Positions 1,653 to 61,870 of a DNA stretch of 64,000 nucleotides are shown one piece after another (the first letter of the stretch is position 1; each line of letters starts with the position of its first letter). The position numbers were made by a program, and so were the translations under genes. The notes below the pieces were generated by a model that was not told the DNA's origin, made no database searches, and saw only the letters and a list, made by a program, of their open reading frames with translations. Origin of the DNA: an uncultured Coriobacteriia bacterium (GTDB lineage Bacteria > Actinomycetota > Coriobacteriia > Anaerosomatales > Anaerosomataceae); NCBI GenBank assembly GCA_927439865.1, contig CAKMKD010000021.1, forward strand, positions 2,522-66,521, in the 5' to 3' direction.

Positions 1653-2759
<1,107 letters not shown>

Positions 2760-2831
2760 CTCGGTCACACCTACAGTGGGCGCGGCGACGCGCCCACTGT
2801 CACGTTACGGCGCCAACCACGCGGAGGTTCG

Positions 2832-6337: not shown

Positions 6338-6366
6338 TTGAGCAACGTGCCCGGTGTCGGTATACT
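6338..6366 (+). promoter_or_regulatory. Candidate sigma-70 promoter for secG (TTGAGC-17 nt-TATACT)
   Basis: -35 TTGAGC at 6338-6343, a 17-nt spacer, and -10 TATACT at 6361-6366, about 70 nt upstream of the secG GTG. Confidence 0.4.
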
Positions 6367-6434
6367 GGCACGGTTCGCCTGAGACATGCTGTTCGTCCCG
6401 TCGTAGCGCGGGGCCGCGTTTTCAAGGAGTCGTT

Positions 6435-6680
6435 GTGGAAGCCATCGCATACATCGTCATTGGTATTCATATACTATGCGCATTAGGACTCGTTTTATTC
6501 GTTCTACTGCATTCAGGTAAGGGCACCGGACTCTCATCGATGATGGGCGGCGCCGTGCCTGCAACGTCGAGCGGCACGGGCATAATCGAGAAGAACCTCG
6601 ATCGAATCACCATCGGTTTCGCCGTTGGCTACGCTGTCACCGCGTTGCTGCTCATGGTGATATACCGTCCGGGCGTCTAG
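6435..6680 (+). CDS. secG: Preprotein translocase subunit SecG
   Basis: Small two-TM protein with the LLHSGKGTGLSSMMGG motif. GTG 6435 follows AAGGAG at 6424-6429. The tpiA-secG neighbourhood is conserved. Confidence 0.85.
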   Translation: MEAIAYIVIGIHILCALGLVLFVLLHSGKGTGLSSMMGGAVPATSSGTGIIEKNLDRITIGFAVGYAVTALLLMVIYRPGV

Positions 6681-19457: not shown

Positions 19458-20684
19458 TCAGTCGCTCAGAAGGTCGAGCGCCGCATCAGCGGCCTGCGTG
19501 ACTGTCCCAACGATGGCCGGATCGTCGCCCCATGGCGAGAGTGTCACCACCCGCACCGTGTCATCCAGGCGGGCTGACTCCACGGCATGCTTCAGGTCCA
19601 GGGCACTGGCAAGTGTCAGGTGAGGCAGCGTCGCCGGCGCGATGATGACGTGCTGGCAGCCGAGAGCCGCCAGGTGGCGAACCGTCTCAGTCACATCCGG
19701 TGTCTGCCATTCGATCCAGCTCGCACGAATAGTGGATTCGGCAAAGCCGCGTTCAACGAGCATCATCCGGACGCGCTGGGTGAAGTAGTTCTCGACCTCG
19801 GTCCAGCCGCATTCGAGGGACGACCAGGCAGTCGGCTGGCCTTCTCCCACGAGCACAACGCCAACGCTGCCGAGCTCTTGTCCATGTGCGGTTTCGATGA
19901 TGCGGTCGACGAGACGTGCTGCGAGGTCGTCCGATCGCCAGATGCTTGGCGCCACGGACAGACGGACGCCCGTCTCATCAGCAACCGACTGGGCGGTGCG
20001 CCGCGCGTCCATGGTGGCGAACGAGTCGTCGGGCCCAAGCGTTACCACCACAACCTCACGATGACCTGCGGCGGCAAGGTCGCGAACGGCACTACCGAGC
20101 GACGGTGACCCGTCGCACCACGCGACAGTGGTCTGACCGACCCTGCTCGACAGCACTTCGGCTACCTGATCGGCGACGCCGGTCACCGTGGCCCGGGCGG
20201 GGTTGAACCCTCCAAGTGCGCGATATCTGGTCTTCTCACTCAGGAAGACGAACGGCATCGCGCTGGTTGGCAGCTGAAGTGCCCCGCTTGAAACGAGTCG
20301 CTCAATGACACGCGCCGTCGAAGCGATTCGGTACCGGGGGGCCTCGGCGCACGACAGGATCACGAGCGCAGGCTTGTCTCGGGGTTGCGACCCCTGCATG
20401 TGAGCCGCCGCCTGGCGAGGCGAATCGACCACGGCGTGCGGGAGGGCGGCCGCCGCGCACCAGTAGCCACCGGCCAGCCCGGCGGCAACGAAGAAGATGG
20501 CAAGGCCGATCGCCTCGGCATCGCCCGTGAGCACGATCGCCGAGAATGATCGAATCATCAGGTAGGCGCCAGCCGCCACACCGATGAGTGGAATGAGCTG
20601 GCTCCGGCGGGGAGCTACAAGGGTGCCCACGAGGCACGCACCGATCGTGATGCTTCCAGCGAGCAGGCCAAGCCAGTGATGCAC
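19458..20684 (-). CDS. Membrane-anchored class II chelatase-fold (ferrochelatase/CbiX-like) protein
   Basis: Three to four N-terminal TM helices, then two alpha/beta repeats resembling chelatase halves (VVVVTLGPDD..., VVLVGEGQP..., CQHVIIAPATLPHL). I moved the start to the GTG preceded by GGAGGGA. The ORF-track start at 20798 would translate through the intergenic palindrome. Confidence 0.45.
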   Translation of the reverse strand: MHHWLGLLAGSITIGACLVGTLVAPRRSQLIPLIGVAAGAYLMIRSFSAIVLTGDAEAIGLAIFFVAAGLAGGYWCAAAALPHAVVDSPRQAAAHMQGSQPRDKPALVILSCAEAPRYRIASTARVIERLVSSGALQLPTSAMPFVFLSEKTRYRALGGFNPARATVTGVADQVAEVLSSRVGQTTVAWCDGSPSLGSAVRDLAAAGHREVVVVTLGPDDSFATMDARRTAQSVADETGVRLSVAPSIWRSDDLAARLVDRIIETAHGQELGSVGVVLVGEGQPTAWSSLECGWTEVENYFTQRVRMMLVERGFAESTIRASWIEWQTPDVTETVRHLAALGCQHVIIAPATLPHLTLASALDLKHAVESARLDDTVRVVTLSPWGDDPAIVGTVTQAADAALDLLSD

Positions 20685-20749
20685 GCGACGTCCCTCCACA
20701 CGGTGTCGGCTCGACAATAGCGGGAGATGTGGTGGCACGGCAAATGCTG

Positions 20750-20780
20750 TTGCAGTTACTATACCCCAGGGGGTATAGTA
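20750..20780 (+). promoter_or_regulatory. Sigma-70-like promoter (TTGCAG-18-TATAGT) containing a 24-bp palindromic operator
   Basis: TACTATACCCC-AG-GGGGTATAGTA at 20757-20780 has perfect 11-bp arms. It fills the spacer and the -10 box of the trxA promoter, in the divergent intergenic region shared with the chelatase-like gene. Confidence 0.65.
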
Positions 20781-20816
20781 ACCCCCGATACAAACCACAA
20801 GGAAAGGGAGCGCACC

Positions 20817-21137
20817 ATGAGCGCATCTGTGAAGGACATTCAGGAGTCTGAGTTCGGGTCAGAGGTTCTAGGCGCCACGGTTCCGGTTATCGTCGACTTC
20901 TGGGCTCCCTGGTGCGGACCATGCAAGATGGTCGGGCCGGAGATCGAGAAGCTCGCTGCCCGCACCAATGACGTCAAGTTCGTAAAGGTGAACGTCGATG
21001 AAAGCCGTGAGGTTGCAATCCAGTACGGAGTCATGAGCATCCCGACCATCGCCAAGTTCGAGCATGGTACTCTGGTTTCGCAGGTGGTTGGCGCTCGAAG
21101 CGCTGACGCGCTTGCACGGGAATTCGGCTTGGCGTAG
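20817..21137 (+). CDS. trxA: Thioredoxin
   Basis: WAPWCGPCK active site, about 106 aa. ATG is preceded by GGAAAGGGAG. Confidence 0.95.
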   Translation: MSASVKDIQESEFGSEVLGATVPVIVDFWAPWCGPCKMVGPEIEKLAARTNDVKFVKVNVDESREVAIQYGVMSIPTIAKFEHGTLVSQVVGARSADALAREFGLA

Positions 21138-21169: not shown

Positions 21170-21541
21170 ATGGACTTCAGCTACAAACGATTCTGCCAAA
21201 TGACGTTCAGCGATGCGGTTGAGGCCGTGGAGCGCACGGTGCGCTCCCACGGCTTCATCGTTGAGCGTGCGCATGACTTGCAGGCGACGTTGGCATCCAA
21301 AGGCTTCGAAATTCAGCCGCTTCGCATCTATGAGCTTCAGTTTGCCGGAGTTGAGCCGGGGGCCGCTGAGATCGACGCAGATTTCCGGCGCTGTCGCGTT
21401 CAGGTGTATGTGGAGGGCGACGAGGTGTTCGTCTCGGCGATTCGCTCTACCGTGCTGCTCGATGAGCGCGCAGGGTCCAGCGCATTCCACACGGAGATAG
21501 AGCATCGCGTGGCGAAGCTCGTGGACGAAATCGCGGACTAG
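21170..21541 (+). CDS. DUF302 domain-containing protein
   Basis: Size and N-terminal pattern (F..A...V...L...GF.I....D) resemble DUF302. It lies 32 nt downstream of trxA on the same strand. Confidence 0.6.
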   Translation: MDFSYKRFCQMTFSDAVEAVERTVRSHGFIVERAHDLQATLASKGFEIQPLRIYELQFAGVEPGAAEIDADFRRCRVQVYVEGDEVFVSAIRSTVLLDERAGSSAFHTEIEHRVAKLVDEIAD

Positions 21542-21844
21542 CTACTGCACGCAGCTGGAGTACTTCAAGAAGACCTTGATCGCTTCGTCAATGAGTTCGT
21601 CGCGCGACTTCTCTCCGTCTTCCACAAGGCACGTCTTCATCGAGTAGCCGATGATGTGCAGCCCAACCTGGTTCAGCGCCGACTTGGCTGCCATGATCTG
21701 CGTGAGAACGGCCTCACAGTCCTTGCCAGAGTCGATCATGGTCTGGAGACCGCGAATCTGGCCTTCGAGCCGCTTCAGTCTGTTGATGATGCGTCGACGC
21801 TCTTCCTCGGTGCCGATAGACTCGCTCTGCTGTGGCATGCTCAA
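21542..21844 (-). CDS. CsoR/RcnR/FrmR-family (DUF156) metal- or thiol-sensing transcriptional repressor, C-x-C type
   Basis: The RLKRLEGQIRGLQTMI helix is diagnostic of the family. Cys43 and Cys72 are present, but the position 4 residues before Cys72, which is the Cu(I) His ligand in CsoR, is Ser68. Confidence 0.85.
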   Translation of the reverse strand: MSMPQQSESIGTEEERRRIINRLKRLEGQIRGLQTMIDSGKDCEAVLTQIMAAKSALNQVGLHIIGYSMKTCLVEDGEKSRDELIDEAIKVFLKYSSCVQ

Positions 21845-21900: not shown

Positions 21901-21917
21901 ATACCCCCTGGGGGTAT
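21901..21917. promoter_or_regulatory. Palindromic operator ATACCCCC-T-GGGGGTAT in the repressor/CDF divergent region
   Basis: Perfect 8-1-8 inverted repeat, 57 nt upstream of the repressor start codon and 25 nt upstream of the CDF start. Confidence 0.65.
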
Positions 21918-21941: not shown

Positions 21942-22883
21942 ATGGGGTACACGAAAGCCAGGCAGGGTGCCGATGGGTCGCGTGCCCGCAGCATCCAGAA
22001 GGTCCTGTGGATTATCCTCGGACTCAATGTCCTGGTGGCAGCGGCGAAACTGGTGTACGGACTCATTACCAGATCAGTCGGCATGACCGCCGACGGGTTC
22101 CACTCTATGTTCGACGGTACCTCGAATGTCATCGGGCTCCTCGGGATGGGTATCGCAGCGCGCCCGGCTGACAGCGATCATCCGTACGGGCACTCAAAGT
22201 ACGAGACGTTCGCGTCGGTCGTCATCGGCGCGATGCTCTTGCTGGCCGCGTGGCGTGTCGGCACGTCGGCGTTCGACCGACTCATGAGCCCCGGAGAGCC
22301 GGCTCGCGTTGATGCGCTGTCGTTCGCCATCATGTTCGGGACGCTCTGCATCAATATCCTCGTCACCCGCTACGAGCGCCGGGTGGGGGAGCAGTTGGGG
22401 AGCGAGATTCTCATCGCCGACGCCAGCCATACCGGCAGCGACGTTCTCGTCAGCATCGGCGTCATCATCGGGCTTGTTGCGGTGAAGCTCGGCTTCCCGA
22501 TTGCCGACCCTATCGTTGGTTTGGTCGTCGCGGGATTCATCGTTGTTGCTGCGCTGCGTGTCTTCCGGGCCGCGCAAGCCACGCTCTCCGATACCGCTCG
22601 CATCGCGCCGGACATGATCCGGGATGTTGCGCTCTCGGTCCCGGGCGTGCTCGGGTGCCATGAGGTCCGCACGCGAGGTCCTGTCGCCGAGGTCTACGTC
22701 GACCTGCACATTCAGGTCGATCCATCGGTGAGCGTGTCCGAGGGGCATGCTATCGCTGAGCGAGTTGAGAAGACCATCTGCGAAGCCCTGCATCAGGTGA
22801 CGGACGTCATCGCTCACCTCGAGCCACTTGACGAGTACCAGAAGCGCAAGACGGCACAGCACGACAGTGATGGGATGGCCTAG
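21942..22883 (+). CDS. Cation diffusion facilitator (CDF) family divalent-metal efflux transporter
   Basis: Six-TM N-terminal domain with HSMFDG and HTGSDVL metal-site motifs, plus a cytoplasmic C-terminal domain. Confidence 0.85.
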   Translation: MGYTKARQGADGSRARSIQKVLWIILGLNVLVAAAKLVYGLITRSVGMTADGFHSMFDGTSNVIGLLGMGIAARPADSDHPYGHSKYETFASVVIGAMLLLAAWRVGTSAFDRLMSPGEPARVDALSFAIMFGTLCINILVTRYERRVGEQLGSEILIADASHTGSDVLVSIGVIIGLVAVKLGFPIADPIVGLVVAGFIVVAALRVFRAAQATLSDTARIAPDMIRDVALSVPGVLGCHEVRTRGPVAEVYVDLHIQVDPSVSVSEGHAIAERVEKTICEALHQVTDVIAHLEPLDEYQKRKTAQHDSDGMA

Positions 22884-22886
22884 CGT

Positions 22887-23867
22887 ATGGAGCAGACCGC
22901 CGCCGATCGCGACCGGCGCGACCGGCTCACCGGTTACGGCCTCGCTGTGCTTGCCGCGGCCTGTTGGGCAACGGGTGGCCTGGCCGCGAAGTGGCTCTTC
23001 TCGCCACTCGATGCGACGACCAGCGGGTGGCCGTTTCCGCCGCTGGGTATCGCCATCGACCCTGTCATGCTTTCGGCTACTCGGGCGTTACTGGCCTTCG
23101 GGATGCTGTTCACATACATGGTAATCGCGCGCCGAGACGCTCTGAGGGTCAAACTGCGCGAGCTACCCTTCCTGATCTTCTTCGGAGTGGTCGGATTGGC
23201 ACTCGTGCACTTCACGTACTTCAAGGCCATATCTCTTACGAGCGTCGCAACCGCGATTCTGCTCGAGTACTTGGCGCCGGTGCTTGTTCTGCTTGTTTCT
23301 GTCGTCGTACTCAGGGACCGGTTCACGTGGTCGCTACCGATGTCGGTTGTGATGTCCGTGACAGGGTGTGCGCTCGTGGTGGGGGCGATTGGCGGAACGG
23401 GGTTGCGCGTCTCGCCCGAGGGACTCGCCTGGGGTCTGGGCTCAGCGGTCTTCTTCGCAGGCTACACGATCATGGGCCGCTGGGCCGCTCACAGGTTCTC
23501 CTCATGGACGCTCCTCACCTATGGCCTCGGTGCTGCCACGCTGTTCTGGTTCGTCGTCCTCGGCGGTCCCGCGCCTGTGTTCGCGACGCTTTCGAACCCG
23601 AAGACCCTTGCCGCGGTCACGTTCATCGCTTTCACAAGCACGGTCGTTCCTTTCGGTGCGTTTCTGAAGGCGCTGAGGCACATTCGGGCCACTGAGGCAT
23701 CGGTAACCGCCACCCTCGAGCCAGTGCTCGCTGCCGTGCTCGCGTGGCTGCTCTTCGGCGAGTCGCTGGGAACAGCTCAGATACTTGGTGGACTGCTTGT
23801 TATCGGCGCCATCATGGTTTCGCAGAGACCGGGTTCGACCGTCTCGGAGCTGCCTCCTGCGGTGTGA
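22887..23867 (+). CDS. EamA/DMT-family transporter
   Basis: Ten predicted TM helices arranged as two EamA-like repeats. Confidence 0.7.
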   Translation: MEQTAADRDRRDRLTGYGLAVLAAACWATGGLAAKWLFSPLDATTSGWPFPPLGIAIDPVMLSATRALLAFGMLFTYMVIARRDALRVKLRELPFLIFFGVVGLALVHFTYFKAISLTSVATAILLEYLAPVLVLLVSVVVLRDRFTWSLPMSVVMSVTGCALVVGAIGGTGLRVSPEGLAWGLGSAVFFAGYTIMGRWAAHRFSSWTLLTYGLGAATLFWFVVLGGPAPVFATLSNPKTLAAVTFIAFTSTVVPFGAFLKALRHIRATEASVTATLEPVLAAVLAWLLFGESLGTAQILGGLLVIGAIMVSQRPGSTVSELPPAV

Positions 23868-23971: not shown

Positions 23972-25366
23972 ATGGAACTCACTCACAGACCGGAACTCAG
24001 GCAGAAGGTCACACTGTCACCCCAGGTCTACCAGGGGCTTACTATACTCGCCATGCCTGTAGTCGAACTGCAGACGCTGATAGACACCGAGCTTCTCGAG
24101 AACCCGGTGTTGGAGCTTGAGGAAGACGAGCTTGAGCCAGCCGAGGAATCTGACGACCGGGTAGACGACGCCGAGGAAGAGCGCGCCTGGGACGATTGGC
24201 TCGATCAGTACGACGACCTTGAGAACCTCGATGCCGGCAGTCCGCGTGATCCGAACCAGGAGGAGATCAACTCCGATGAGTTCGTTGGGGGCGTGCGGAC
24301 GTTCGATGATTACCTGATCGACCAGCTCGGCATGCTCGACATTCCCGAGGACGTTGCGCGCGCGGCCCGAGCTATCGTCGGATCACTTGATGACGACGGC
24401 CTTTTCGTGGGCACGTGTGCCGAGATAGCCGCCATAACCGGTGTCACAGCTGCTGTTGTAGAGCAGGCGCTTTCCGTTGTGCAGCAGCTGGATCCTCCAG
24501 GCGTGGGGGCACGCACTGTTCGCGAGGCTCTGAAGATTCAGGCTGCGTATCTCGGCATCGATACGCCGCTGGTGATCGCGCTGATAGAGCGTCACCTCGA
24601 CGCTGTGGCCGCCAGCCATACACGCAAGGTCTCGCGGGCCGAACATGTGACGGAAGACGAGGTGCGCGACGCGGTTGAGCTGCTCAAGCAACTCAACCCC
24701 CGTCCTGCCGGCTCGTTCTCGCCCGGCCAGGCACCGTCGTACGTCATCCCTGATCTCACGCTTCGACGCTTCGGCGAGGACTGGCTCATCATTCCGAACA
24801 ATGAGGCTGTGCCGACCCTGAAAGTCAGCCCCCGTTATCGTCAGATGCTCCGCTCTCAGTCCAAGGTCGACGATGAGACACGCAAATACCTGAAAGACAA
24901 GATCCGCTCCGCTGAGTCGTTCATGCGCAACGTCGACAGGCGCCGCGACACGGTCACCCGAATCGCCGAGATCATCTTGGAGACGCAGAAGGACTTCTTC
25001 GAGGACGGAAAGGGCGACATGCGGCCGCTACGCCTTGAGGATGTGTCCTCGGAGATCGGCGTGCATCTGAGCACCGTCAGCCGTGGGGTGACCGGCAAGT
25101 ACATGGCCACGCCGTACGGCCTGTTCGAGCTGAAGCACTTCTTCTCGGGAGGCTACAGGAGCTCGAGCGGGATGGATGTTGCGGCCACAACCGTTAAGCG
25201 GCGAATTCGAGATCTGCTGGAGGCGGAAGATCAAAGCCGACCGCTCTCGGATCAGAAGCTCGCCGAGGCTCTGTCTGCGGACGGCGTCGACGTGGCTCGC
25301 CGCACGGTGGCGAAGTACCGGGAGGAGCTCGGGATCGAGCCCTCGTGGGCGAGGAAGCGTCGATGA
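23972..25366 (+). CDS. rpoN: RNA polymerase sigma-54 factor
   Basis: N-terminal region I (LRQKVTLSPQVYQGLTILAMPVVELQ), an acidic region II, and a C-terminal HTH plus RpoN box (ARRTVAKYRE). Confidence 0.9.
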   Translation: MELTHRPELRQKVTLSPQVYQGLTILAMPVVELQTLIDTELLENPVLELEEDELEPAEESDDRVDDAEEERAWDDWLDQYDDLENLDAGSPRDPNQEEINSDEFVGGVRTFDDYLIDQLGMLDIPEDVARAARAIVGSLDDDGLFVGTCAEIAAITGVTAAVVEQALSVVQQLDPPGVGARTVREALKIQAAYLGIDTPLVIALIERHLDAVAASHTRKVSRAEHVTEDEVRDAVELLKQLNPRPAGSFSPGQAPSYVIPDLTLRRFGEDWLIIPNNEAVPTLKVSPRYRQMLRSQSKVDDETRKYLKDKIRSAESFMRNVDRRRDTVTRIAEIILETQKDFFEDGKGDMRPLRLEDVSSEIGVHLSTVSRGVTGKYMATPYGLFELKHFFSGGYRSSSGMDVAATTVKRRIRDLLEAEDQSRPLSDQKLAEALSADGVDVARRTVAKYREELGIEPSWARKRR

Positions 25367-26907
25367 CGCCTGAGCCAACGCCAACAGGTCGTCGTATCGA
25401 CGAGAGTCGGGGCGATGATGGACTCATCTCTGGTCGCAGGAGCGAGGTGCGTGACGTAGCGCTCATCGTCATCTTGCTTGCGTCGATCACCATCCTGCAT
25501 CTGTTCACGTCCGCAGCGCCTCAGGCGATGTCGATGCATCTGCTCTACCGCAAGCTGTATTACCTGCCCATCATGTTTGCGGGGTTTGTTTTCGGCCGAC
25601 GAGGCGGATTCATTACTGCGGTCGCGGCGAGCCTGCTGTTCGCCCTGCACGCTACAGTTTCGCTCGGCGGACTCCTCGGCGAGCACATCGACAACCTGTA
25701 CGAAATCGTCATGTATGTGGCGATTGGCGTTATGTTCGGGTGGCTCCGTGACCTCTCCGAAGTCAAGACGCAGGATCTCAGACAACTCAGCAGACAGCTT
25801 GAGGATGCGTACAGAAAGCTCGAGGAACGCGCGATTCAGCTCGTCAACATCCAGGACTACACGCAATCGATCCTGAGGTCGATCACGTCGGGCGTCGTTA
25901 CCGTCGGGCCGGACGGGTCGGTCGCTACTGCGAACCCTGCGGCCGAGAGGATGCTCGGTGTCCGTGAGGTCGACATCGTGCCTCGTCGCATCGGTACGCT
26001 CTTTGCCGACGACTCTGGGCTCGACGACGAGGTCTGGAAGGTGCTCAAAGGGCGGATTCCGAAGTCAGTGAAGGACATGCGACTCGTCACACGAGCCGGT
26101 CGGGTGCTCCACGTGCAGGCGTCGACATCCCGGATGCGTGATGTCGATGGCCGAATCCTCGGCGCAGTTGTCACGGTGGAAGACGTATCCGAGGTCAAGG
26201 CTCTTACCGACCAGCTCATCCGAGCCGACCGGCTGGCGGCCATGGGGGAGCTGACCGCAGGCGTAGCACACGAGGTGCGCAACCCTCTTGGTATCATCAG
26301 AGCATCGGTACAGCTCGTCGAAGAGTCCGGCGCCGATCGTGAACGGGTGCTCGAAGCTACGAGTGTGATCAAGCAGGAAATCGACCGCCTGGATCGGGTG
26401 ATCAAGGCGCTTCTCGATTTTGGTCGACCATCAAAGCCGTACCTTCGACTCACGGATCTCGGCGAAGTCATCGAAGACGTCGTGCTATTCACGAGGCGCT
26501 TCGCAGGGCAGTCGAAGGTGACCATCTCGGCGAAGGATATCGGCTCGCTGCCGAGCATAATGGCGGATCCCGACCAGATGAAGCAGGTGTTCGTCAACCT
26601 CATATCGAACGCCGTGCAGGCTATGGACAGCTCAGGCGGTACCATCTCGGTGAGTGGCAGAAGTGACGAAGGATTCCTCTCGATCGTTGTCTCGGATGAC
26701 GGCCCCGGAATCGCGGAGTCCGAGCTCAAGAAGGTGTTCGATCCGTTCTTCTCAACACGGGACGCAGGAACAGGTCTGGGACTCACGATCGTTCATAGGA
26801 TTCTTGACGAGCACGATGGGCACATAGAAGTCGCGAGTGTTCCGGGGCAGGGGACGACCTTCACAGTGTCGCTCCCCGTGTTCCAGACAGGCGAGGAGGA
26901 TCGATGA
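25363..26907 (+). CDS. Membrane sensor histidine kinase (PAS-HisKA-HATPase, NtrB-like)
   Basis: N-terminal TM bundle, PAS region, H-box HEVRNPL, and N/G boxes (NLISNAVQA, GTGLGL). ATGA overlap with rpoN. Confidence 0.85.
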   Translation: MTPEPTPTGRRIDESRGDDGLISGRRSEVRDVALIVILLASITILHLFTSAAPQAMSMHLLYRKLYYLPIMFAGFVFGRRGGFITAVAASLLFALHATVSLGGLLGEHIDNLYEIVMYVAIGVMFGWLRDLSEVKTQDLRQLSRQLEDAYRKLEERAIQLVNIQDYTQSILRSITSGVVTVGPDGSVATANPAAERMLGVREVDIVPRRIGTLFADDSGLDDEVWKVLKGRIPKSVKDMRLVTRAGRVLHVQASTSRMRDVDGRILGAVVTVEDVSEVKALTDQLIRADRLAAMGELTAGVAHEVRNPLGIIRASVQLVEESGADRERVLEATSVIKQEIDRLDRVIKALLDFGRPSKPYLRLTDLGEVIEDVVLFTRRFAGQSKVTISAKDIGSLPSIMADPDQMKQVFVNLISNAVQAMDSSGGTISVSGRSDEGFLSIVVSDDGPGIAESELKKVFDPFFSTRDAGTGLGLTIVHRILDEHDGHIEVASVPGQGTTFTVSLPVFQTGEEDR

Positions 26908-28253
26908 AGCGGCGCGTACTGATCGCCGACGACGAGAAGAACATGCGGTGGGTGCTCGGCCAGGCGCTGAGCGCCGAGGGCTACGAGATCATCGAGGCAG
27001 CCGACGGCAAGGAAGTCCTTGCGGCGATCGCCGATCAGCCCCCGGAACTCATGGTGCTCGATCACAAGATGCCGGCACCGGATGGCATGGAGGTGCTCCG
27101 ACGCCTCAGGGCGAAAGGGCACACGTTCCCGATCATCATGTTGACCGCTCACGGCAACGTAGCGAGCGCGGTTGAAGCGATGAAGGCGGGCGCGAGCGAG
27201 TACCTCACCAAACCGTTTGACCTCGAAGAGCTGAAGCTCAGCATCGAAAAGGCACTCAAGGTCGGCGATCTTGCCGCGGAAGTGACCCGGTTGCGCGAGG
27301 AGCTCGACCGAGATTACGACGTCTCCGGAATCGTCGCAGCAGATCCGACGATGCTTGCCATTCTCGAGACGACACACAAGGTGGCACCTACGAGTGCGAC
27401 GGTCATGATCTACGGCGAGTCAGGCACGGGCAAAGAGCTCGTCGCACGGGCGCTGCACACGCTCTCGAATCGCGCGAGCAAGCCGTTTGTCTCAGTCAGC
27501 GCTGGCGCACTGCCCGAAACACTTCTCGAAAGTGAGCTATTCGGCTACGAGAAGGGTGCGTTCACCGGGGCGATGCAGGCGAAACCAGGCCGCTTCGAGC
27601 TGGCGAACGGAGGCACGCTCTTCCTCGATGAAATCGGAGATATCACCCCCGGTGTGCAGGTGAAGCTGCTCCGCGTGATGCAGGAGCGGACCTTTGAACG
27701 CCTTGGCGGAACGCGTCCAATCGAGGTCGACGTGCGCGTGGTGGCTGCAACGAACAAGGATCTACAGCAGCTGATCGCGGATGGTCAGTTCCGGGAGGAC
27801 CTTTACTACCGGCTCAACGTGGTGCCGATCACGCTGCCGCCTCTCAGGCAGCGGCCAAGCGAGATTCCGCTCCTGGTTGCACTCTTCCTTGAGAAGCAGA
27901 AGGCCGGCTCCAAGCACATTTCGTCCGAGGCGATGCAGTTGCTCGTCGAGTATCAATGGCCGGGCAACGTTCGCGAGCTCGAGAACACCATCGAGCGGAT
28001 AGCGATCCTCTCGCGCAACGACGAGATCACTGTGGATGATCTGCCCGCCGAGGTACGCTCGGGCGTGGCGATGTGCTCCCCCGGCGAGCGTTGCTTCGTC
28101 CTGCCCGAGGGTGGGCTCGACCTCGAGGAGGTCGAACTGGAGTTTGTGAAACAGGCACTTGAGCGGACTGGCGGCTCGTCCCCCAAAGCGGCCAAGCTCC
28201 TCGGTCTCACCACGAAGACGATCGAGGCGCGCATGGAAAAATTCGGGCTCTGA
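26904..28253 (+). CDS. Sigma-54-dependent response regulator (REC-AAA+-Fis HTH, NtrC family)
   Basis: REC domain, Walker A GESGTGKE, the sigma-54 contact motif GAFTGA, and a C-terminal HTH (AAKLLGLTTKTI). ATGA overlap with the kinase gene. Confidence 0.9.
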   Translation: MKRRVLIADDEKNMRWVLGQALSAEGYEIIEAADGKEVLAAIADQPPELMVLDHKMPAPDGMEVLRRLRAKGHTFPIIMLTAHGNVASAVEAMKAGASEYLTKPFDLEELKLSIEKALKVGDLAAEVTRLREELDRDYDVSGIVAADPTMLAILETTHKVAPTSATVMIYGESGTGKELVARALHTLSNRASKPFVSVSAGALPETLLESELFGYEKGAFTGAMQAKPGRFELANGGTLFLDEIGDITPGVQVKLLRVMQERTFERLGGTRPIEVDVRVVAATNKDLQQLIADGQFREDLYYRLNVVPITLPPLRQRPSEIPLLVALFLEKQKAGSKHISSEAMQLLVEYQWPGNVRELENTIERIAILSRNDEITVDDLPAEVRSGVAMCSPGERCFVLPEGGLDLEEVELEFVKQALERTGGSSPKAAKLLGLTTKTIEARMEKFGL

Positions 28254-28280: not shown

Positions 28281-28296
28281 TGGCATGCGTATTGCA
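28281..28296 (+). promoter_or_regulatory. Sigma-54 (-24/-12) promoter TGGCAT-GCGTA-TTGCA
   Basis: Matches TGGCAC-N5-TTGCW with correct GG/GC spacing and one core mismatch. It lies 27 nt after the activator stop and about 40 nt before the next ATG. Confidence 0.65.
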
Positions 28297-28336: not shown

Positions 28337-28696
28337 ATGCAGTCTCGAGGCAACCGGACCACCATCGCCACGATTCTCGGCGCGCTCCTGCTGGTCGCGT
28401 TCGTCGGCGGGCTCGTTATGGTTGTGAATGCCGAGGACGGTTTTGCCAACTGCACCGGTGCGGCGGAATTCGGCTGGATGGCACCATTGTTCGCTGCTGC
28501 GATAATCGGTGGCCTCGCCTGGGTACTACTTCGCCAAGACCCGCGATCACCTGATGATGCACAGGCTGCTCCGTTTGAGGAGTGCCCCGAATGCGGCCGC
28601 TCCGTTCTCGGGCAGTGGCGCATGTGTCCTTACTGCGGCGAGATGCTCGATCCTCGTTACTCTATCCGCGCCGCCGCATCGCGAGGCGAGCAGTAG
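28337..28696 (+). CDS. Two-TM membrane protein with C-terminal zinc-ribbon (CPECG...CPYCG)
   Basis: Two hydrophobic helices followed by a CxxC-N12-CxxC motif. RBS AAGGTGAAGG. Confidence 0.55.
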   Translation: MQSRGNRTTIATILGALLLVAFVGGLVMVVNAEDGFANCTGAAEFGWMAPLFAAAIIGGLAWVLLRQDPRSPDDAQAAPFEECPECGRSVLGQWRMCPYCGEMLDPRYSIRAAASRGEQ

Positions 28697-28721: not shown

Positions 28722-28946
28722 ATGGCTGAGCCCCAGACCACACGCTTCACTACGACCGGCATGCACTGCCATTCATGCTCGATGCTCATTCAGATGACGG
28801 TGAGCGATCTTGACGGAGTCGACTCGGTCGAGGTCGATAACGCTGCCGGTCTGACTGAGGTCACCTACGATCCGGACAAGGTCACGCCCGAGGGGATCAT
28901 CACAGAGATCGTGGCTGTGGGTTATGGCGCCGAGGTTGCAGGGTAG
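28722..28946 (+). CDS. Heavy-metal-associated (HMA, CopZ-like) domain protein with variant GMHCHSC site
   Basis: About 74 aa with a ferredoxin-like HMA pattern (TTGMHCHSCSMLIQMTVSDLDGV...). ATG follows GAGGAGG. The ORF-track start at 28509 lies inside the previous gene. Confidence 0.8.
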   Translation: MAEPQTTRFTTTGMHCHSCSMLIQMTVSDLDGVDSVEVDNAAGLTEVTYDPDKVTPEGIITEIVAVGYGAEVAG

Positions 28947-28962
28947 CGAGGACTAGACGCAA

Positions 28963-28982
28963 ATACCCCCAGGGGGTATAGT
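28963..28982 (+). promoter_or_regulatory. Palindromic operator ATACCCCC-A-GGGGGTAT overlapping a TATAGT -10 box upstream of ccdA
   Basis: Perfect 8-1-8 inverted repeat at 28963-28979. TATAGT at 28977-28982, with TAGACG 17 nt upstream as a possible -35. Confidence 0.6.
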
Positions 28983-29051: not shown

Positions 29052-29798
29052 ATGCCGGATGCAACAGTTGGATTCTTTGGCGCGTTTCTTGGCGGGCTCT
29101 TGTCGTTCCTTTCCCCGTGCGTGCTGCCTCTCATTCCCGGGTACCTCTCGTTCATGACCGGCCTGAGTGCTGGTGACCTGAAGAGCGGTGAGTCCAGGGT
29201 TAGCCGAATACTCGTGCCGAGCGCGCTGTTCACCTTGGGCTTCTCAGTCGTCTTCGTGCTCCTTGGTGCTGCTGCCGGCTTTGCGAGCGATGCGCTTCGG
29301 CCGTTCATGGCTACCTATCAGAGTGCCATCAGCGTCGCTGCTGGAATCCTTATCGTGCTCGTCGGCATCTTCATGCTTGGGATCATCAAGGTTCCCTGGC
29401 TCTACGGTGAAGCCCGGTTTGACCTGGCGAAGTCCAGGCGATTCGGCAGTGGAGCCGCGTTCGTGATGGGACTGGCATTCGGGTTCGGTTGGACGCCGTG
29501 TGTGGGTCCGATTCTTGCCGTGATACTGGGGCTTGCCGCGCAGACTGGCGACGTCACACGGGCAGCGCTGATGCTCGGAGCCTACTCGCTCGGCCTCGCC
29601 CTTCCATTCCTGCTGACAGCGGCCTTCTTCGGCAAGCTGACGCGTACCCTCGGGTGGTTCAACCGGCATTCTGTCGCCCTGTCACGAGCTGCCGGCGTCA
29701 TGCTGATCGTGATGGGCGTGCTGATCGCATCAGGTCAGCTTGGCCGACTCTCAGCGCTCATGATCAAAGCCATGCCGTTCCTCTCCAAGCTTGGGTGA
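29052..29798 (+). CDS. ccdA: Cytochrome c biogenesis / thiol-disulfide electron transporter CcdA (DsbD family)
   Basis: LSPCVLPLIPGYL and WTPCVGPIL, the two conserved Cys-containing TM motifs. Confidence 0.85.
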   Translation: MPDATVGFFGAFLGGLLSFLSPCVLPLIPGYLSFMTGLSAGDLKSGESRVSRILVPSALFTLGFSVVFVLLGAAAGFASDALRPFMATYQSAISVAAGILIVLVGIFMLGIIKVPWLYGEARFDLAKSRRFGSGAAFVMGLAFGFGWTPCVGPILAVILGLAAQTGDVTRAALMLGAYSLGLALPFLLTAAFFGKLTRTLGWFNRHSVALSRAAGVMLIVMGVLIASGQLGRLSALMIKAMPFLSKLG

Positions 29799-32800: not shown

Positions 32801-33131
32801 CGAGATACTCCGGCTGAGCACGACGGGGGCACTTCTCGGCGCAGTTCGAGCTGCCGAGTACGCTGAGTCCGAGGTCGTTGTCACGCCACAAGGAACGCTG
32901 CTGCTCTACACTGATGGTGTCACTGAGGCGCGAAATCGCGGTCGGTTCTTTGGCGAAGGACGGGTGCGCCGCGCGCTTCGCCAGGGCGGATCGGCTACAG
33001 CTGTCACCCAACGAATGCTCACCCTGGTTCAACGATTCTCCCACGGCGAGCTCCGCGACGACGCTGCGATTCTTGCGGTGGTGCTCGGCCCGGTGCCCGA
33101 GGGCGACGCCGCGGAGGTTACTGCCGACTGA
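29865..33131 (+). CDS. Large sensor phosphatase: TM-extracytoplasmic (Cache-like)-TM-HAMP-3xGAF-PP2C (SpoIIE/RsbU type)
   Basis: Two TM segments flank a roughly 250-aa loop. HAMP region (NDEIGRLIESFN). Three GAF-like repeats each end in FA.QAALA..NA.LF. C-terminal PPM domain (GGDYYD, GDVCGKG, YTDGVTEA). Confidence 0.8.
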   Translation: MTMAGPWPIKRSLANRYTLLVAVAVALTTLILASALARGVYSMASREETARQRAQSDLVVRDISSRLLASSRVLRTLSDREAILGTDERAAGKALASAYVANAEYLQGVAVLDADGAPIVAYPSDSPMPPVATVRAADFTEGVAYLWLDATDDSQGVLWVAVPTRGTGGDDRLLVGVARTGFIDEALKQVTFSEMRPTAVVADVAGRSVFTAGDPQAYLGSTINYDPSADDPNLGSVSIESESGQRFTGVYASMSGLRGLDWRVIIAENESVVATETWNALRPAVIAWSISSFVAMALALISASFLARPLRMLDQRARAAASGAILEPLPVNRNDEIGRLIESFNSVALRLNGMHDISQLLASASDVEEVLDRILVSLSHILGARDVEILLLEDEGTTLHLVRASGALVHVRGARISVDASTWLGGSITTRAVERFSGAVALDPLMHLHESHSDTACAIAVPLAKGHSVLGVVVIVCDERQPFSEAEVEVARSFAAQAALALDNARLFEDERRSRRDAEALRQVAESMSSRASLAGSLNDIGAIEADLLGADKSWVFLEEPGDGSGETEEVSALCFSLWRRIKDERGFSENALPVVLSADDHDQGVRALMGVLGAESVVITPVSVHEALTGLLVVGWVDRTYALDQRGIGLGSAIGQQIALALENAALFDEARTRADNLETIFRISQAVSSSLQSKVVLNRVLDVVQKILSADAVMLMTLDPSRGLMVVPMARGILNPEMLKMEFRAGEDIPGEVFETKEPIAVPDLNESDSFLSRVAVGQNLSSAVFVPLLARGRSIGVLAVLARMKGAFTADDTELLRTFATQAALAIDTADLFSREHHVATVLQQSILPTRLPVIHGIESASVYVPASSEVEIGGDYYDLFLAPDGRVVIAIGDVCGKGVEAATKTSMIKYSIRGMIAAGAMPSAVLSELNAALVAAGDPADIVTLWLGLLDIDTGRLVWANGGHPPAMLLQADTSEILRLSTTGALLGAVRAAEYAESEVVVTPQGTLLLYTDGVTEARNRGRFFGEGRVRRALRQGGSATAVTQRMLTLVQRFSHGELRDDAAILAVVLGPVPEGDAAEVTAD

Positions 33132-37772: not shown

Positions 37773-37782
37773 GAGAAGCTCG

Positions 37783-58696: not shown

Positions 58697-58747
58697 TTGA
58701 CTCGAAATACCAGGGGGGGTATGCTTCGCGGGTACCCGATGGGGGTA
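58697..58747 (+). promoter_or_regulatory. Sigma-70-like promoter (TTGACT-17-TATGCT) with two tandem CsoR-type operator-like sites
   Basis: ATACCAGGGGGGGTAT at 58707-58722 fills the spacer and the -10 box. TACCC-GAT-GGGGGTA at 58733-58747 lies about at the predicted transcript start. Confidence 0.5.
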
Positions 58748-58798: not shown

Positions 58799-61700
58799 AT
58801 GCCGGTATTGAGCGCGCGGGTTGAGTCAGGGTTGAGGGACATCTTCGGCGACCGGATGCGGACCGATCGGGTTGAACGGAAGCTCTACTCGGCAGACATC
58901 GGGTCGCTACCCAAACTCGTGAAGCCTCTGATGCCGACCGGTGTCGCCGGAGCCGTCGTGCGGCCGAAGACTGAAGAGGAAATTGTCGCTCTCGTCCGGC
59001 TTGCCCGTGCCGAGAAGGTAAGCATCGTGCCTCGCGGGATGTCCACTTCGGGTTACGGTGGCGTCCTGCCGCTGCCCGGCGCGATCGTTGCCGACATCTC
59101 CGGCATGGGAAAGCTTCTCGAGATCGATCACGCCGCCAAGACAGCTCGCGTACAGGCGGGTGCGCTCTGGGAACCGCTCCAGAAGACCTTGAACGCCGAA
59201 GGGTTGGATCTGCGCGTGTACCCCTCGTCCCTGCCGTCATCGACCGTAGCCGGATGGCTTGCGCAGGGTGGCGCCGGGTTCGGCTCTTTCGAGTACGGCT
59301 TCTTCAAGGACAGCGTTCTTGCGGCGCGTGTTGTCGGACCCGACGGAACGGTCACCACATTCACGGGCGTCGAGCTTGAGACGCTTGTTGCCGATGCCGA
59401 GGGAATCACCGGCATCATTACCGAGGTGACCATCGCGCTTCGCGATCTTGAACCTGAGGTGCACCGCGTTCTCACGTTTCCGGTGATTGCTGACTTGCAG
59501 GCCGCTCTGAACGCCATCTCGGTGCAGAAGCTCCCGATCTGGTCGCTCACGTTCCTCAACCCGGAATCGGTACGGCTGAAGCGAACCATTCCGCACCGCC
59601 ACGGTCACCCCTGGGAGATGCGCCACCCCGGCTATGAGCCCGAACTGCCCGAGGCATTCATCGTTGTGATCGCGTACCCCGGTTCCCGACGTGGCGCGAT
59701 TGATACCGCGCTAGGAGCCATTCTCTCGGCGAACAACGGCAGCGAGCTCGACGCTCAGGCCGCGGAGCACGAGTGGGAGCAGCGTTTCGCGCCGATGCGC
59801 CTGAAGCGCGTCGGGCCGTCGATCGTTCCTACTGAGGTCGTCGTTCCGCTTGAGGAACTCGGCGCTGTGCTCGGCGAGATCGACACACGCGTCAAGCAGC
59901 CGTTCGTGCTCGAAGGGATGCTCGGCAAGGGCGACAAGGTCGTGCTGCTCGGGTTCATCCCGCACGACGAGCGCTCCCTGGCGTTCAACCTCGCGTTCGC
60001 GCTGTCGCTTGTTGTCATCAAGATCGCGAAGCAGCATCACGGCGGTGCGTACTCCACCGGGCTCTTCTTCCGTCAGGAGGCCAAGAGCGTTCTCGGCGAG
60101 AAGAAGTATCGGGCACTGGAGGAGTACAAGCGCGCGAACGATCCCGAGAACGTGATGAATCCCAAGAAAGTCCTCGGCACGGGCGCAATAAACGCGCTCA
60201 TGGGCGCTGCGCTTGCGTTCGAACCACTGGTGCGGCCGATCGCCAATGCGGCGAAGGCTCCGACCGGTGATATGGTCGGCGCCAAGGACAAGAACGGTAT
60301 ACCTGCTGATGTCGCCTTCTACAGCTATGCGTGCGCGCAGTGTGGCTACTGCGTGCCCACATGCGAGGAGTACAGCGTTCGCGGATGGATGTCGCATTCG
60401 CCGAGAGGCAAGTACCTCTATCTGCGTGAGGTCATCGAGGGCCGGGAAAAGTTCGACCAGCACATGGTCGATACGTTCCTGGTGTGTACGACCTGCGAGG
60501 TCTGCAACACGCGATGCCAGCTGCAACTGCCGGTGGAGCACTCATGGATGACCATGCGAGGCAAACTGATCCAGGATGAGGGCCGAATGACCTTCCCGCC
60601 ATTCGAGATGATGGCTGCGTCGCTGCGTGGTGAGCTCAACATCTGGGCGGCGAAGAGGGAGAAGCGCGCAGACTGGGTGCCCGAGCACATCAAGCCCAAG
60701 ATCGATGAGACCTCCGACATCCTGTACTTCGCCGGATGCACGGCAAGCTTCGTGAACACCGATGTTGCACAGGCTTCTGTCGAGCTGTTGGACAGGGCCG
60801 GCGTGAAGTTCAACTACATGGGTGAAGATGAGGCGTGCTGTGGCATCCCGATGAAGGTCGCAGGGCGGTGGGACACGTTTGAGGAGATCTACCTGCATAA
60901 CACGTCCGAGGCACGCAAACGTGGCGCGAAGACGATCGTGACCTCGTGTCCGGCATGTGGCCTGGTCTGGAAGGAACTTTACGCGAACCTTGCCGCCGAG
61001 CGCGGTGACGAGTACGAGTTCGAGGTGAAGCACTACTCGGAGCTTGTGGCTGACGCTATCGCCGACGGGTCGCTTGTGTTCGATCACGAGGTAAACAAGA
61101 AGCTGACCTTCCACGACTCGTGTCATATGGGCCGTGCTCAAGGCAACTACGAGCCGCCGCGGGATCTTATCAAGGCCATCCCTGGAGTCGAGTTCGTGGA
61201 GATGGAGCATCACCACGAGGACGCCCTGTGCTGCGGTTCGGTTCTGACGCTCATCGGCGAAACACCGGTGGCGCCGGAGCTTGGCAAAATGCGCCTTGAT
61301 GAGGCGGTCGCGGTTGAGGCGGACGCCATGGTTGCGCTCTGCCCCTGCTGCCAGGTCCAGTTCCGCGACTCGATCGCCAAGAAGGACATCCCGATGGAGG
61401 TCGTCGACCTCGCGCATCTGGCAATGGACGGCCTCGGCATAGCGCATCCGGATCCATCGGCATACGCGAATGAGATGTGGGGCTATTTCGAGAAGTTCAT
61501 CTGGCTAATGAAGCCGGAGTCGATCACCGACATCATGGTCACCCTGCTCCCGGAGATGATGAAGGCGATGCCAACGGGCATGCTCCCGATGATGAAGGCG
61601 GCGCGTGCGGTCCCCGGCGGCCTTGCGGCGATGGGCGCCATGATGCCCGCGATGATGCCGAAGATGTTGCCCGCGATGATGCCGAAGGTCATGCCTGCCA

Positions 61701-61870
61701 TGCTGGTCGAGGTGTCGAGGCGCGTCGGTCCTCTGCCCGAGGACATGGAAGCGCTCATGCCCTCGCTGCTCCCTGAGACGATGGACGCGCTGCTGCCCAA
61801 CATGCTGCCGCTCATCATGGACGACTTCGTACCGAAGATGCTGGAGTACGTGAAGAACGAATTGAAGTAG
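58799..61870 (+). CDS. Fusion oxidoreductase: FAD-binding (GlcD/PCMH-type) dehydrogenase + 2x[4Fe-4S] + 2x CCG (HdrD/GlcF-like) domains + Met/Pro-rich C-terminal module
   Basis: FAD_binding_4 region (VVRPKTEEEIVALVRLA...PRGMSTSGYGG). CxxCxxCxxxC motifs CAQCGYCVPTC and CTTCEVCNTRC. CCG motifs (CCGIPM, CCGSV, CPCCQ). ATG 58799 follows AGGAAGGAA. The ORF-track start at 58613 runs through the promoter and operators. Confidence 0.8.
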   Translation: MPVLSARVESGLRDIFGDRMRTDRVERKLYSADIGSLPKLVKPLMPTGVAGAVVRPKTEEEIVALVRLARAEKVSIVPRGMSTSGYGGVLPLPGAIVADISGMGKLLEIDHAAKTARVQAGALWEPLQKTLNAEGLDLRVYPSSLPSSTVAGWLAQGGAGFGSFEYGFFKDSVLAARVVGPDGTVTTFTGVELETLVADAEGITGIITEVTIALRDLEPEVHRVLTFPVIADLQAALNAISVQKLPIWSLTFLNPESVRLKRTIPHRHGHPWEMRHPGYEPELPEAFIVVIAYPGSRRGAIDTALGAILSANNGSELDAQAAEHEWEQRFAPMRLKRVGPSIVPTEVVVPLEELGAVLGEIDTRVKQPFVLEGMLGKGDKVVLLGFIPHDERSLAFNLAFALSLVVIKIAKQHHGGAYSTGLFFRQEAKSVLGEKKYRALEEYKRANDPENVMNPKKVLGTGAINALMGAALAFEPLVRPIANAAKAPTGDMVGAKDKNGIPADVAFYSYACAQCGYCVPTCEEYSVRGWMSHSPRGKYLYLREVIEGREKFDQHMVDTFLVCTTCEVCNTRCQLQLPVEHSWMTMRGKLIQDEGRMTFPPFEMMAASLRGELNIWAAKREKRADWVPEHIKPKIDETSDILYFAGCTASFVNTDVAQASVELLDRAGVKFNYMGEDEACCGIPMKVAGRWDTFEEIYLHNTSEARKRGAKTIVTSCPACGLVWKELYANLAAERGDEYEFEVKHYSELVADAIADGSLVFDHEVNKKLTFHDSCHMGRAQGNYEPPRDLIKAIPGVEFVEMEHHHEDALCCGSVLTLIGETPVAPELGKMRLDEAVAVEADAMVALCPCCQVQFRDSIAKKDIPMEVVDLAHLAMDGLGIAHPDPSAYANEMWGYFEKFIWLMKPESITDIMVTLLPEMMKAMPTGMLPMMKAARAVPGGLAAMGAMMPAMMPKMLPAMMPKVMPAMLVEVSRRVGPLPEDMEALMPSLLPETMDALLPNMLPLIMDDFVPKMLEYVKNELK

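Follow-up and report, generated by a model that had tools for sequence, protein, structure and literature searches.

A CsoR-family regulator with a two-cysteine fingerprint as a candidate thiol-oxidation switch for thioredoxin, CcdA and oxidoreductase genes in uncultured Coriobacteriia

The CsoR family is the textbook case of a small fold that has been re-tuned to copper, nickel/cobalt, formaldehyde and persulfide, and the question raised by the locus described here is which signal is read by one further member of it. The gene in question (positions 21542..21844, reverse strand) lies in a stretch of 64,000 nucleotides, hereafter the window, from an uncultured Coriobacteriia bacterium of the Anaerosomataceae (assembly GCA_927439865.1, contig CAKMKD010000021.1, positions 2,522 to 66,521), and it is predicted to encode a CsoR-family (PF02583) repressor of 100 residues with the fingerprint x-C43-S68-C72, an invariant third cysteine, C98, and a conserved histidine, H63. 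A first-pass annotation made from the sequence alone had taken it for a CsoR-family repressor that lacks the copper-ligand histidine and resembles the persulfide sensor CstR. Our answer, which we hold with slightly better than even confidence, is that the protein is a CsoR-family thiol-oxidation switch for genes of thiol/disulfide homeostasis.

Membership of the family stands firmly, with a Pfam match to the Trns_repr_metal profile (PF02583) at E = 3e-25 and 88.9 bits against a cut-off of 22.8, an all-alpha three-helix protomer, and an operator that is an inverted repeat of G/C tracts with TAC/GTA flanks and that also occurs in the regulator's own promoter. In the AlphaFold2 monomer (pLDDT 77), the helices span residues 13-39, 43-72 and 81-98, with C43 and C72 capping helix 2 at either end, in the manner of CsoR and CstR, and C98 as the final residue of helix 3. 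The best PDB sequence match is the Geobacillus CsoR 4m1p (E = 9e-13; TM about 0.63-0.65 for the model by Foldseek), and further sequence matches are 6ahx (CsoR), InrS 5fmn, Streptococcus pneumoniae CstR 7mq1-3, Streptomyces lividans CsoR and FrmR. The significant Foldseek matches are exclusively CsoR, CstR, FrmR and InrS, which score about equally, and Foldseek was dropped as a means of telling CstR from CsoR. The open reading frame begins with TTG, giving 100 residues, while an ATG two codons inward would give 98, and we favour the TTG because the homologs span 99-101 residues. No second, paralogous CsoR-family gene was found within the window. Most likely, judging from the sequence, the protein is a tetrameric repressor of the CsoR fold.

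The cysteines and histidines of this protein carry most of what can be said about its signal. The by-eye alignment of the first-pass annotation had put C43 and C72, 29 residues apart, in register with the Cu(I) ligands of CsoR and Ser68 at the place of the ligand histidine, and both placements are reproduced by the HMMER alignment to 4m1p, where 'iigySmktC' stands opposite 'llerHanhC', S68 falls in the ligand-His column and C43 in the column of the first ligand Cys; aligning 80 genomic relatives leads to the same register. Of these relatives, about 38 are genuine CsoRs with YC...H...C, while the motif of the regulator and its orthologs is [D/E/Q]C...[S/A]...C, with D42 of the regulator where copper sensors carry the second-shell Tyr that is present in every YC-H-C relative. 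Among 121 close homologs (80-95% identity, mostly labelled as Coriobacteriia, Anaerosomatales or 'Actinobacteria bacterium' metagenome-assembled genomes, MAGs), no sequence departs from C43 or C72, and position 68 is occupied by Ser 115 times, by Ala six times and by His never. The neighbouring position 67 is His in 69 of the 121 and Tyr in 49, and this histidine cannot stand in for the i-4 ligand because a residue at i-5 lies about 140 degrees round the helix from C72. The first 12 residues (MSMPQQ...) are variable, with no conserved His or Pro2.

Besides the pair C43/C72, which is present in all relatives aligned, the close homologs share C98, a third cysteine that lies in the tail motif KYSSCVQ (121/121), and almost all of them share H63 (118/121). 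The tail cysteine has no counterpart in any of the 64 out-group relatives, and neither C98 nor H63 is present in L016, the ortholog that diverges most. Both residues fall outside every known CsoR-family mechanism. On the modelled helices, H63 and position 67 would face away from C72 on helix 2, and C98 would sit at the far end of helix 3, away from the X-Y-Z site; it is unlikely that C98 or H63 joins that site, and they may instead form a separate site at an interface. One metagenomic protein of 162 residues (P0073) has two CsoR-like units in tandem, a truncated first copy without the tail cysteine and a full second copy that ends in RYSACVS, and could be either a fused gene or two neighbouring paralogs wrongly called as one.

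Which genes the regulator would control is indicated by its putative operators. Scanning of the window with a strict pattern, TACCC-N1-7-GGGTA, returned four sites against 0.04 expected by chance, and a loose pattern, TACC-N4-8-GGTA, returned six against 0.66 expected, five of them intergenic. The loose-pattern sites are those at 20762, 21902, 28964, 58708 and 58733, together with TACCGATATCGGGTA at 9248, which is intragenic and without a G/C tract, and which we took as the expected chance match. The other five, to which no strand is assigned, have C4-5/G4-5 tracts and overlap sigma-70-type promoter elements, the right arm of the operator doubling as the -10 box. The putative operator TACCCCAGGGGGTA (20762..20775) lies within the promoter of a thioredoxin gene, trx, 41 bp before it, and ATACCCCCTGGGGGTAT (21902..21916) lies between the regulator and a divergent cation efflux gene of the CDF family, 25 bp 5' of the CDF ATG. 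In addition, ATACCCCCAGGGGGTAT (28964..28978), in a promoter-like TAGACG-17-TATAGT, lies 73 bp 5' of ccdA and 18 bp past the stop of a gene for a protein of the HMA family, and a tandem pair precedes a large oxidoreductase gene, with TACCAGGGGGGGTA (58708..58721) in the spacer/-10 box of a promoter-like TTGACT-17-TATGCT, 77 bp before the gene, and TACCCGATGGGGGTA (58733..58747) 51 bp 5' of its start codon. The palindrome that the first-pass annotation had noticed on the thioredoxin, CcdA and CCG-domain oxidoreductase genes is therefore strongly non-random in the window and, as described below, conserved across related genomes; it is this conservation which tells us that the operators form a regulon and are not a coincidence.

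We recovered 16 orthologs of the regulator from GTDB genomes at 66-95% identity, with a sharp drop to the next relatives at 51% or less. The orthologous loci are syntenic: CDF, EamA and rpoN, in that order, read away from an operator on one side and the regulator reads away from it on the other, and convergent with the regulator lies a unit of trx followed by the DUF302 gene, with a second operator between trx and a CbiX-like gene. The operator shared by the regulator and the CDF-EamA unit is present in 16 of 16 loci, and where the CDF gene is missing, in the three genomes L008, L011 and L016, it stands directly 5' of EamA. The second operator is found 5' of trx in most of the orthologous loci that bear trx and is gone where trx is gone. 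In 14 orthologous trx promoters, the arrangement TTGACA-N3-4-ATACCCC..GGGGTATA(A/C/G)T is kept, a sigma-70 promoter close to consensus in which the operator is set between the -35 and -10 boxes. A candidate sigma-54 promoter, TGGCACGGCAAATGCT, at 20733-20748, 5' of the trx operator and with rpoN nearby, is not kept in these 14 promoters and is probably due to chance. We also considered the 20762 operator as common to trx and the divergent CbiX-like gene, and assigned it to trx, since the site is lost together with trx while the CbiX-like gene remains.

The trx gene (20817..21137, forward strand) encodes a cytoplasmic-type thioredoxin with the WCGPC motif (PF00085; TIGR01068 at 109.9 bits against a cut-off of 96.8). 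In the same orientation and 32 bp 3' of it lies the gene for a protein of 123 residues (21170..21541, forward strand), whose own Pfam match to DUF302 (E = 0.29) is not significant, as is likewise its PDB search, and which we identify as a DUF302-family protein because its orthologs in L082, L134 and L135 match PF03625 (tblastn identity 38-82%). A DUF302 gene also lies beside the regulator in a tandem duplicate in L012 (6382-7196). On the regulator's other side, the first gene of the divergent operon encodes the CDF-family cation efflux transporter (21942..22883, forward strand; PF01545 and PF16916), present in 13 of the 16 orthologous loci, and only 3 bp separate it from the gene for an EamA/DMT-family transporter (22887..23867, forward strand; PF00892 in two stretches), which we therefore place in the same operon and which is present in all 16. 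The EamA family includes the cysteine/O-acetylserine exporter of E. coli. The ccdA gene (29052..29798, forward strand) encodes a transmembrane thiol-disulfide electron transporter of the CcdA/DsbD type (PF02683 and PF13386). Its operator was surveyed in the window and in six orthologous loci of 20 kb (L081, L082, L083, L133, L134 and L135), and the same arrangement as in the window was found in L083, L133, L134 and L135, i.e., in five of the seven genomes.

The most consistent target is the gene at 58799..61870 (forward strand), which encodes a fusion oxidoreductase of 1023 residues with FAD_binding_4, FAD-oxidase_C and 4Fe-4S dicluster domains and two CCG domains. The first-pass annotation had called it HdrD-like, and the CCG domains agree with this, while the FAD-binding, FAD-oxidase and 4Fe-4S dicluster domains show that it is not solely HdrD-like; by Pfam, its architecture is of the GlcD-GlcF or YdiJ type, and its NCBIfam matches to TfrB, LdhH, GlcD, GlpC and YdiJ are all below cut-off. 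The CCG module serves heterodisulfide reductases and also dehydrogenases of the GlcF, GlpC and LutA types. In a metagenome scan of 40 oxidoreductase loci with an intact 5' end (29-89% identity), 34 had one or two TACC-N6-GGTA sites 47-145 bp 5' of the gene, at a density of 4.2 per kb against 0.043 per kb elsewhere in those loci, which is an enrichment of about 100-fold. Two of the site-negative loci bear degenerate copies, and two of the contigs also hold the regulator 35-40 kb off, as in the window.

With the regulon in hand, the established signals of the family can be taken in turn. The regulator resembles the Cu(I)-sensing CsoRs of Bacillus subtilis, Geobacillus (4m1p), S. lividans and Mycobacterium tuberculosis in its operator type, in both cysteines and in its best sequence and structure matches, and it differs from them in having Ser for the ligand His, which departs from x-C-H-C, and Asp for the second-shell Tyr. 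Under the operators there is no copA/copZ operon, and no P-type ATPase was found under any of them. Among the relatives, CopZ-like HMA genes adjoin YC-H-C regulators only (six loci), and thioredoxin genes lie immediately downstream of non-YC-H-C regulators only (L017, L018, L024, L041 and L055). From the ligand set and the gene context, and given that the CopA/HMA/cupredoxin cluster of L082 carries no operator, copper sensing by this regulator seems unlikely. A nickel/cobalt sensor of the RcnR/InrS/NreA type (H-C-H-H or H-C-H-C) was rejected for want of a His at position Y and of a conserved N-terminal His, and a formaldehyde sensor of the FrmR type (P2-C35-H60) for want of a conserved N-terminus and, again, of the position-Y His; the NCBIfam scores agree, at 39 bits for RcnR (cut-off 138), 40.8 bits for FrmR (cut-off 133) and far under cut-off for RicR.

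The comparison with CstR is closer and needs more care. The regulator shares with the CstRs of Staphylococcus aureus, Enterococcus faecalis and S. pneumoniae (clusters 4 and 10; the candidate cluster 3 is from actinomycetes) the PF02583 fold, the x-C-x-C fingerprint at the ends of helix 2, with C43 and C72 invariant and no ligand residue at positions W and Y, D-C instead of Y-C at the first cysteine (Cys X), the palindromic G/C-tract operator with TAC/GTA flanks and, probably, an inter-protomer Cys-Cys' switch. It is unlike them in sequence (about 32-40% identity), in the invariant C98 and conserved H63, which lie outside the CstR paradigm, in its hosts, which are anaerobic Coriobacteriia-type MAGs, and in its regulon, consisting here of trx, DUF302, CcdA, CDF-EamA and the FAD/Fe-S/CCG oxidoreductase, where that of CstR consists of sqr, cstA, cstB, tauE, rhodanese and CoA persulfide reductase genes. 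The CstR clusters 3, 4 and 10 were set in a sequence similarity network at an alignment score of 28 and validated by their sulfide/sulfite detoxification neighbourhoods (Fakhoury et al. 2021, PMC8643695). In an EFI-style network that joined four PDB references to the 80 genomic relatives and included no authentic cluster-3 sequence, the regulator, together with its 16 orthologs, stands isolated at scores of 28 and 24, merges for the first time at 20, with non-copper 'DC-x-C' groups (thioredoxin-linked Armatimonadota and Anaerolineae proteins and an Acidimicrobiia group), and merges with everything at 18. The alignment score of the regulator is lower with S. pneumoniae CstR (cluster 10; 12.7) than with the Geobacillus CsoR (15.1), and against what we take to be the sequence of S. 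aureus CstR (cluster 4), which fits its published C31/C60 numbering, the identity is 40% at 63.5 bits and a score of about 15. Where cluster 10 has its wedge Asn, this clade has Ser or Ala.

The gene neighbourhoods agree with this isolation. We found no sqr, pdo, rhodanese, tauE or CoA-persulfide-reductase gene among the scanned genes of the window (about 19.5-33.9 kb, most open reading frames of 35-64 kb and all operator-linked genes), in the six orthologous loci of 20 kb or under the operators; positions 1-19 kb were mostly covered through the orthologous genes in the six loci, and no sulfide-detoxification gene was among these. The CstR-like character proposed by the first-pass annotation accordingly holds for the fingerprint and, probably, the mechanism, and fails for family membership, in view of the network isolation and of the lack of sulfide genes in these regions. 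The family alignment and network that it had suggested as a check did return x-C-x-C and, at scores of 28 and 24, joined the clade to no CstR cluster. In our opinion, the regulator most likely works in the manner of CstR, to judge from its sequence, and cannot be filed as a member of the CstR family.

Two precedents lead us to propose a Cys-Cys' switch, namely CstR and the Thermus thermophilus HB8 protein TTHA1953, the repressor of the Sox cluster. In CstRs, the two cysteines form Cys-Cys' di-, tri- and tetrasulfide cross-links, and the proteins also react with persulfide, H2O2, GSSG and tetrathionate (PMC8643695). In TTHA1953, the cysteines C39 and C68 have the same 29-residue spacing, DNA is bound in the reduced form only and no longer once they are joined in a disulfide, a thioredoxin gene is repressed 113-fold, and Cu, Ni and Co do not release the protein under reducing conditions (PMC10318464). 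The two proteins, which we liken by description and not by sequence, thus have in common two cysteines 29 residues apart and a thioredoxin gene as target (soxW in Thermus), and they differ in that the Thermus operator, TACNNTACNNNNGTANNGTA, has no G/C tract and its regulon is that of periplasmic Sox thiosulfate oxidation; the regions scanned here yielded no sox genes. The logic is also that of sigmaR-RsrA in Actinobacteria, Spx in Firmicutes and OxyR, where a cysteine switch induces genes of the thioredoxin system and the induced reductant resets the sensor. These three have unrelated folds, being an anti-sigma factor, an RNA polymerase-binding protein and a LysR-type activator, in contrast to a CsoR-fold repressor.

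In the mechanism that we propose, the reduced tetramer would sit on ATACCCC-N1-3-GGGGTAT palindromes in the spacer/-10 region of at least four sigma-70-type promoters and block RNA polymerase there, the four units being the regulator itself with the divergent CDF-EamA, trx-DUF302, ccdA, and the FAD/Fe-S/CCG oxidoreductase. On oxidation, C43 at the N-terminus of helix 2 would form an inter-protomer disulfide or polysulfide with C72', which lies at the C-terminal end of the partner's helix 2, and the DNA would be released. Derepression would then supply more cytoplasmic thioredoxin and more CcdA to carry reducing equivalents over the membrane, together with export by EamA and CDF, the latter of which might clear metal freed from oxidised thiolate sites, and thioredoxin would probably re-reduce the repressor and so close a feedback loop. 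What the analysis shows is the family and fold, the fingerprint, the places of the operators with their conservation, and the make-up of the regulon; the repression, the Cys-Cys' switch, the thioredoxin feedback and the inducer are all features that we infer from sequence and analogy. As for the inducer, we regard the signal as thiol-oxidising stress in a strict anaerobe, i.e., disulfide stress, oxidants and possibly persulfides or polysulfides, and not as that of a dedicated sulfide-oxidation circuit; reactive sulfur is a plausible inducer in sulfidic anaerobic habitats, and general disulfide or oxidant stress agrees with the regulon just as well. The preference of the first-pass annotation for thiol or reactive-sulfur sensing over copper is thus upheld in that copper is unlikely, with a persulfide inducer possible only.

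A wider distribution of the regulator-thioredoxin pair is consistent with this proposal. Bicistrons in which a regulator gene is followed by trx occur among non-copper relatives of 35-50% identity in Armatimonadota, in Anaerolineae and in a Methylocystaceae MAG (L017 5986-6867; L018 and L024 around 6001-6660; L041 2622-3290; L055 1222-1859), and in L017, L018 and L024 a CsoR-type palindrome lies 5' of the pair. That this bicistron recurs across distant phyla points to thioredoxin as the ancestral core target; thioredoxin is probably also the reductant that resets the sensor.

Several observations weigh against a thiol-oxidation switch and deserve to be considered together. The FAD/Fe-S/CCG enzyme may be unrelated to thiols, and the NCBIfam model of E. 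coli YdiJ, which has the same architecture, names a D-2-hydroxyglutarate dehydrogenase; the ccdA operator was not found in L081 and L082, two of the seven genomes surveyed; a CDF metal exporter is first in the divergent operon in 13 of 16 loci, and an HMA gene lies directly 5' of the ccdA operator; and C98 and H63 have no role in a two-cysteine model, which suggests that the mechanism as proposed is incomplete. A dedicated CstR-type sensor of persulfides and polysulfides, i.e., of reactive sulfur species, would account for the x-C-x-C fingerprint, and for the absence of SQR and PDO as well if a strict anaerobe detoxified such species reductively, with thioredoxin converting persulfides to H2S. 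E. coli OxyR is reported, as the title of one paper has it, to sense sulfane sulfur and to activate genes for its removal, and TTHA1953 ties a two-cysteine protein of the CsoR family to both sulfur metabolism and thioredoxin. Moreover, CstR chemistry runs on exactly this cysteine pair (PMC8643695), and DUF302, co-transcribed here with trx, has genes within the sox clusters of sulfur oxidisers (PMC5037610). We nevertheless consider a dedicated sensor of this kind unlikely, with neither the window, as far as it was scanned, nor the six 20-kb loci nor the genes under the operators yielding a sulfurtransferase, SQR, PDO, TauE or CoA persulfide reductase, with the clade outside the CstR clusters at the published threshold and no closer to S. 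pneumoniae CstR than to copper CsoR, and with Ser or Ala for the wedge Asn; CstRs are, besides, promiscuous in vitro, and the fingerprint is no proof by itself of specificity for reactive sulfur.

The exporter raises the question of a thiophilic metal or metalloid (Zn, Cd, another soft metal, or As/Sb) bound through C43, C72 and possibly C98 and H63, with CDF as the primary target and the thiol-homeostasis genes co-induced because such metals attack thiols. PF02583 is chiefly a family of metal sensors, the protein has three invariant cysteines and a conserved histidine, an HMA gene adjoins ccdA, and the CDF gene, divergent and with its operator 25 bp from the start in 13 of the 16 genomes, has a zinc-efflux CDF (Zn_efflux_Cdf31) as its best NCBIfam match. 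That match, however, reaches 233 bits against a cut-off of 460, about half, and the operator stays 5' of EamA in the three genomes that have no CDF. The HMA gene is upstream and not downstream of the ccdA operator, the L082 CopA cluster is without one, and the Met-rich tail that had been thought to keep a metal signal possible was found in neither the regulator nor the CDF translation. Every known metal site of the CsoR family has a His at position Y (PMC8643695), which this clade lacks, and in the modelled structure H63 and H67 would lie opposite C72 on helix 2, with C98 at the helix 3 end, at the tetramer interface and off the X-Y-Z site. A metal as the signal appears to us quite unlikely. 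Lastly, the tetramer interface might hold a second site, sensory or structural, formed by C98 with or without H63, such as a disulfide between dimers, a metal bridge or an Fe-S cluster, and this site might control DNA binding or the oligomeric state in place of C43/C72. C98 is as invariant as the other two cysteines (121/121), it is specific to the clade (none of the 64 out-group relatives has it, nor does the divergent ortholog L016), and it ends helix 3, which is the tetramer interface in CstR (PMC8643695). Such control would be without precedent in the family, L016 retains the operator and the EamA target without C98 and H63, and the presence of C43/C72 in all relatives suggests that these are the core switch; we judge it improbable that the interface site takes their place.

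The protein follows known patterns in its fold, its operator type and its probable chemistry. The sequence cluster, the third invariant cysteine, the regulon of thioredoxin, CcdA, oxidoreductase and transporters, and the wider regulator-thioredoxin module appear to be undescribed in the literature searched. It is possible, and we put it forward tentatively, that the clade represents the first CsoR-family regulator devoted to general thiol/disulfide (oxidative) stress and not to metals, formaldehyde or sulfide oxidation, with a second, clade-specific sensory site made of C98 with or without H63 at the tetramer interface, a CsoR-fold counterpart of sigmaR-RsrA, Spx or OxyR. If this is true, an undescribed module of wide occurrence would have its minimal form in the regulator-thioredoxin bicistrons of Armatimonadota, Chloroflexota and Alphaproteobacteria, and a single regulator in anaerobic Coriobacteriia would directly control thioredoxin, CcdA, the export of thiols or metals, and a substrate-linked Fe-S/CCG oxidoreductase. 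A review of 2024 notes that no H2O2- or ROS-specific sensor has been characterised in the CsoR family, which blocks a side-by-side study of the specificity of CstR for reactive sulfur (PMC11672702). The present clade is a concrete candidate for that comparison, having the same dithiol, a small residue for the wedge Asn, an extra invariant cysteine and a conserved regulon centred on trx and CcdA in place of sulfide oxidation. It also offers a first handle on the regulation of redox stress in uncultured subsurface Coriobacteriia, and the placing of the oxidoreductase and the DUF302 protein in a defined stress regulon is a clue to the function of each.

Of the neighbouring genes, the one divergent from trx (19458-20798, reverse strand) specifies a membrane-anchored protein whose ferrochelatase/CbiX-type chelatase domains are weak, and is kept in 16 of 16 orthologous loci; its longest open reading frame runs over the trx operator, and its true start is probably further downstream. 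The HMA protein encoded 5' of the ccdA operator (28722-28946, forward strand; 74 residues) has the metal loop GMHCHSC (C-H-S-C with a flanking His) and not the usual MxCxxC, and its best NCBIfam match, below cut-off, is a model named 'UxxU metal-binding (seleno)protein'. A near-perfect sigma-54 promoter consensus, TGGCATGCGTATTGCA, at 28281-28296, lies 5' of a zinc-ribbon open reading frame (28337-28696) and of the HMA gene, and directly 3' of a cluster of rpoN, a PAS-histidine kinase and an NtrC-type activator (23972-28253). Because this site precedes the HMA gene, and because the ccdA operator begins only past the HMA stop, the HMA gene seems to belong to the sigma-54/NtrC circuit and not to the CsoR-like regulon. 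At the HMA-ccdA position, L082 has a DsbD_TM-cupredoxin fusion, HMA, a cupredoxin and a CopA-type P-type ATPase (1-3092), with no CsoR-type operator, and L135 has an additional cupredoxin gene between HMA and ccdA; these two arrangements suggest a link of this CcdA to extracytoplasmic copper proteins.

Downstream of ccdA, at a distance of 66 bp, lies the gene for a HAMP-GAF-GAF-SpoIIE (PP2C) phosphatase of 1088 residues (29865-33131, forward strand), which forms a partner-switching module with the following STAS and HATPase_c_2 protein (33182-33955, forward strand). The phosphatase gene is 3' of ccdA in six of the seven genomes, L082 being the exception, and may be co-transcribed with it and belong to the regulon. 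A membrane-bound [NiFe] hydrogenase cluster (52816-57013, reverse strand; small and large subunits, cytochrome b and a HycI-type maturation protease) is found some 1.7 kb upstream of the oxidoreductase gene under operator control, with DUF2249 and HAD hydrolase genes between them. Finally, a UbiD-family decarboxylase, a UbiA prenyltransferase and a UbiX-like flavoprotein (35353-38379, forward strand) make up a cassette for prenylated-FMN/quinone biosynthesis.

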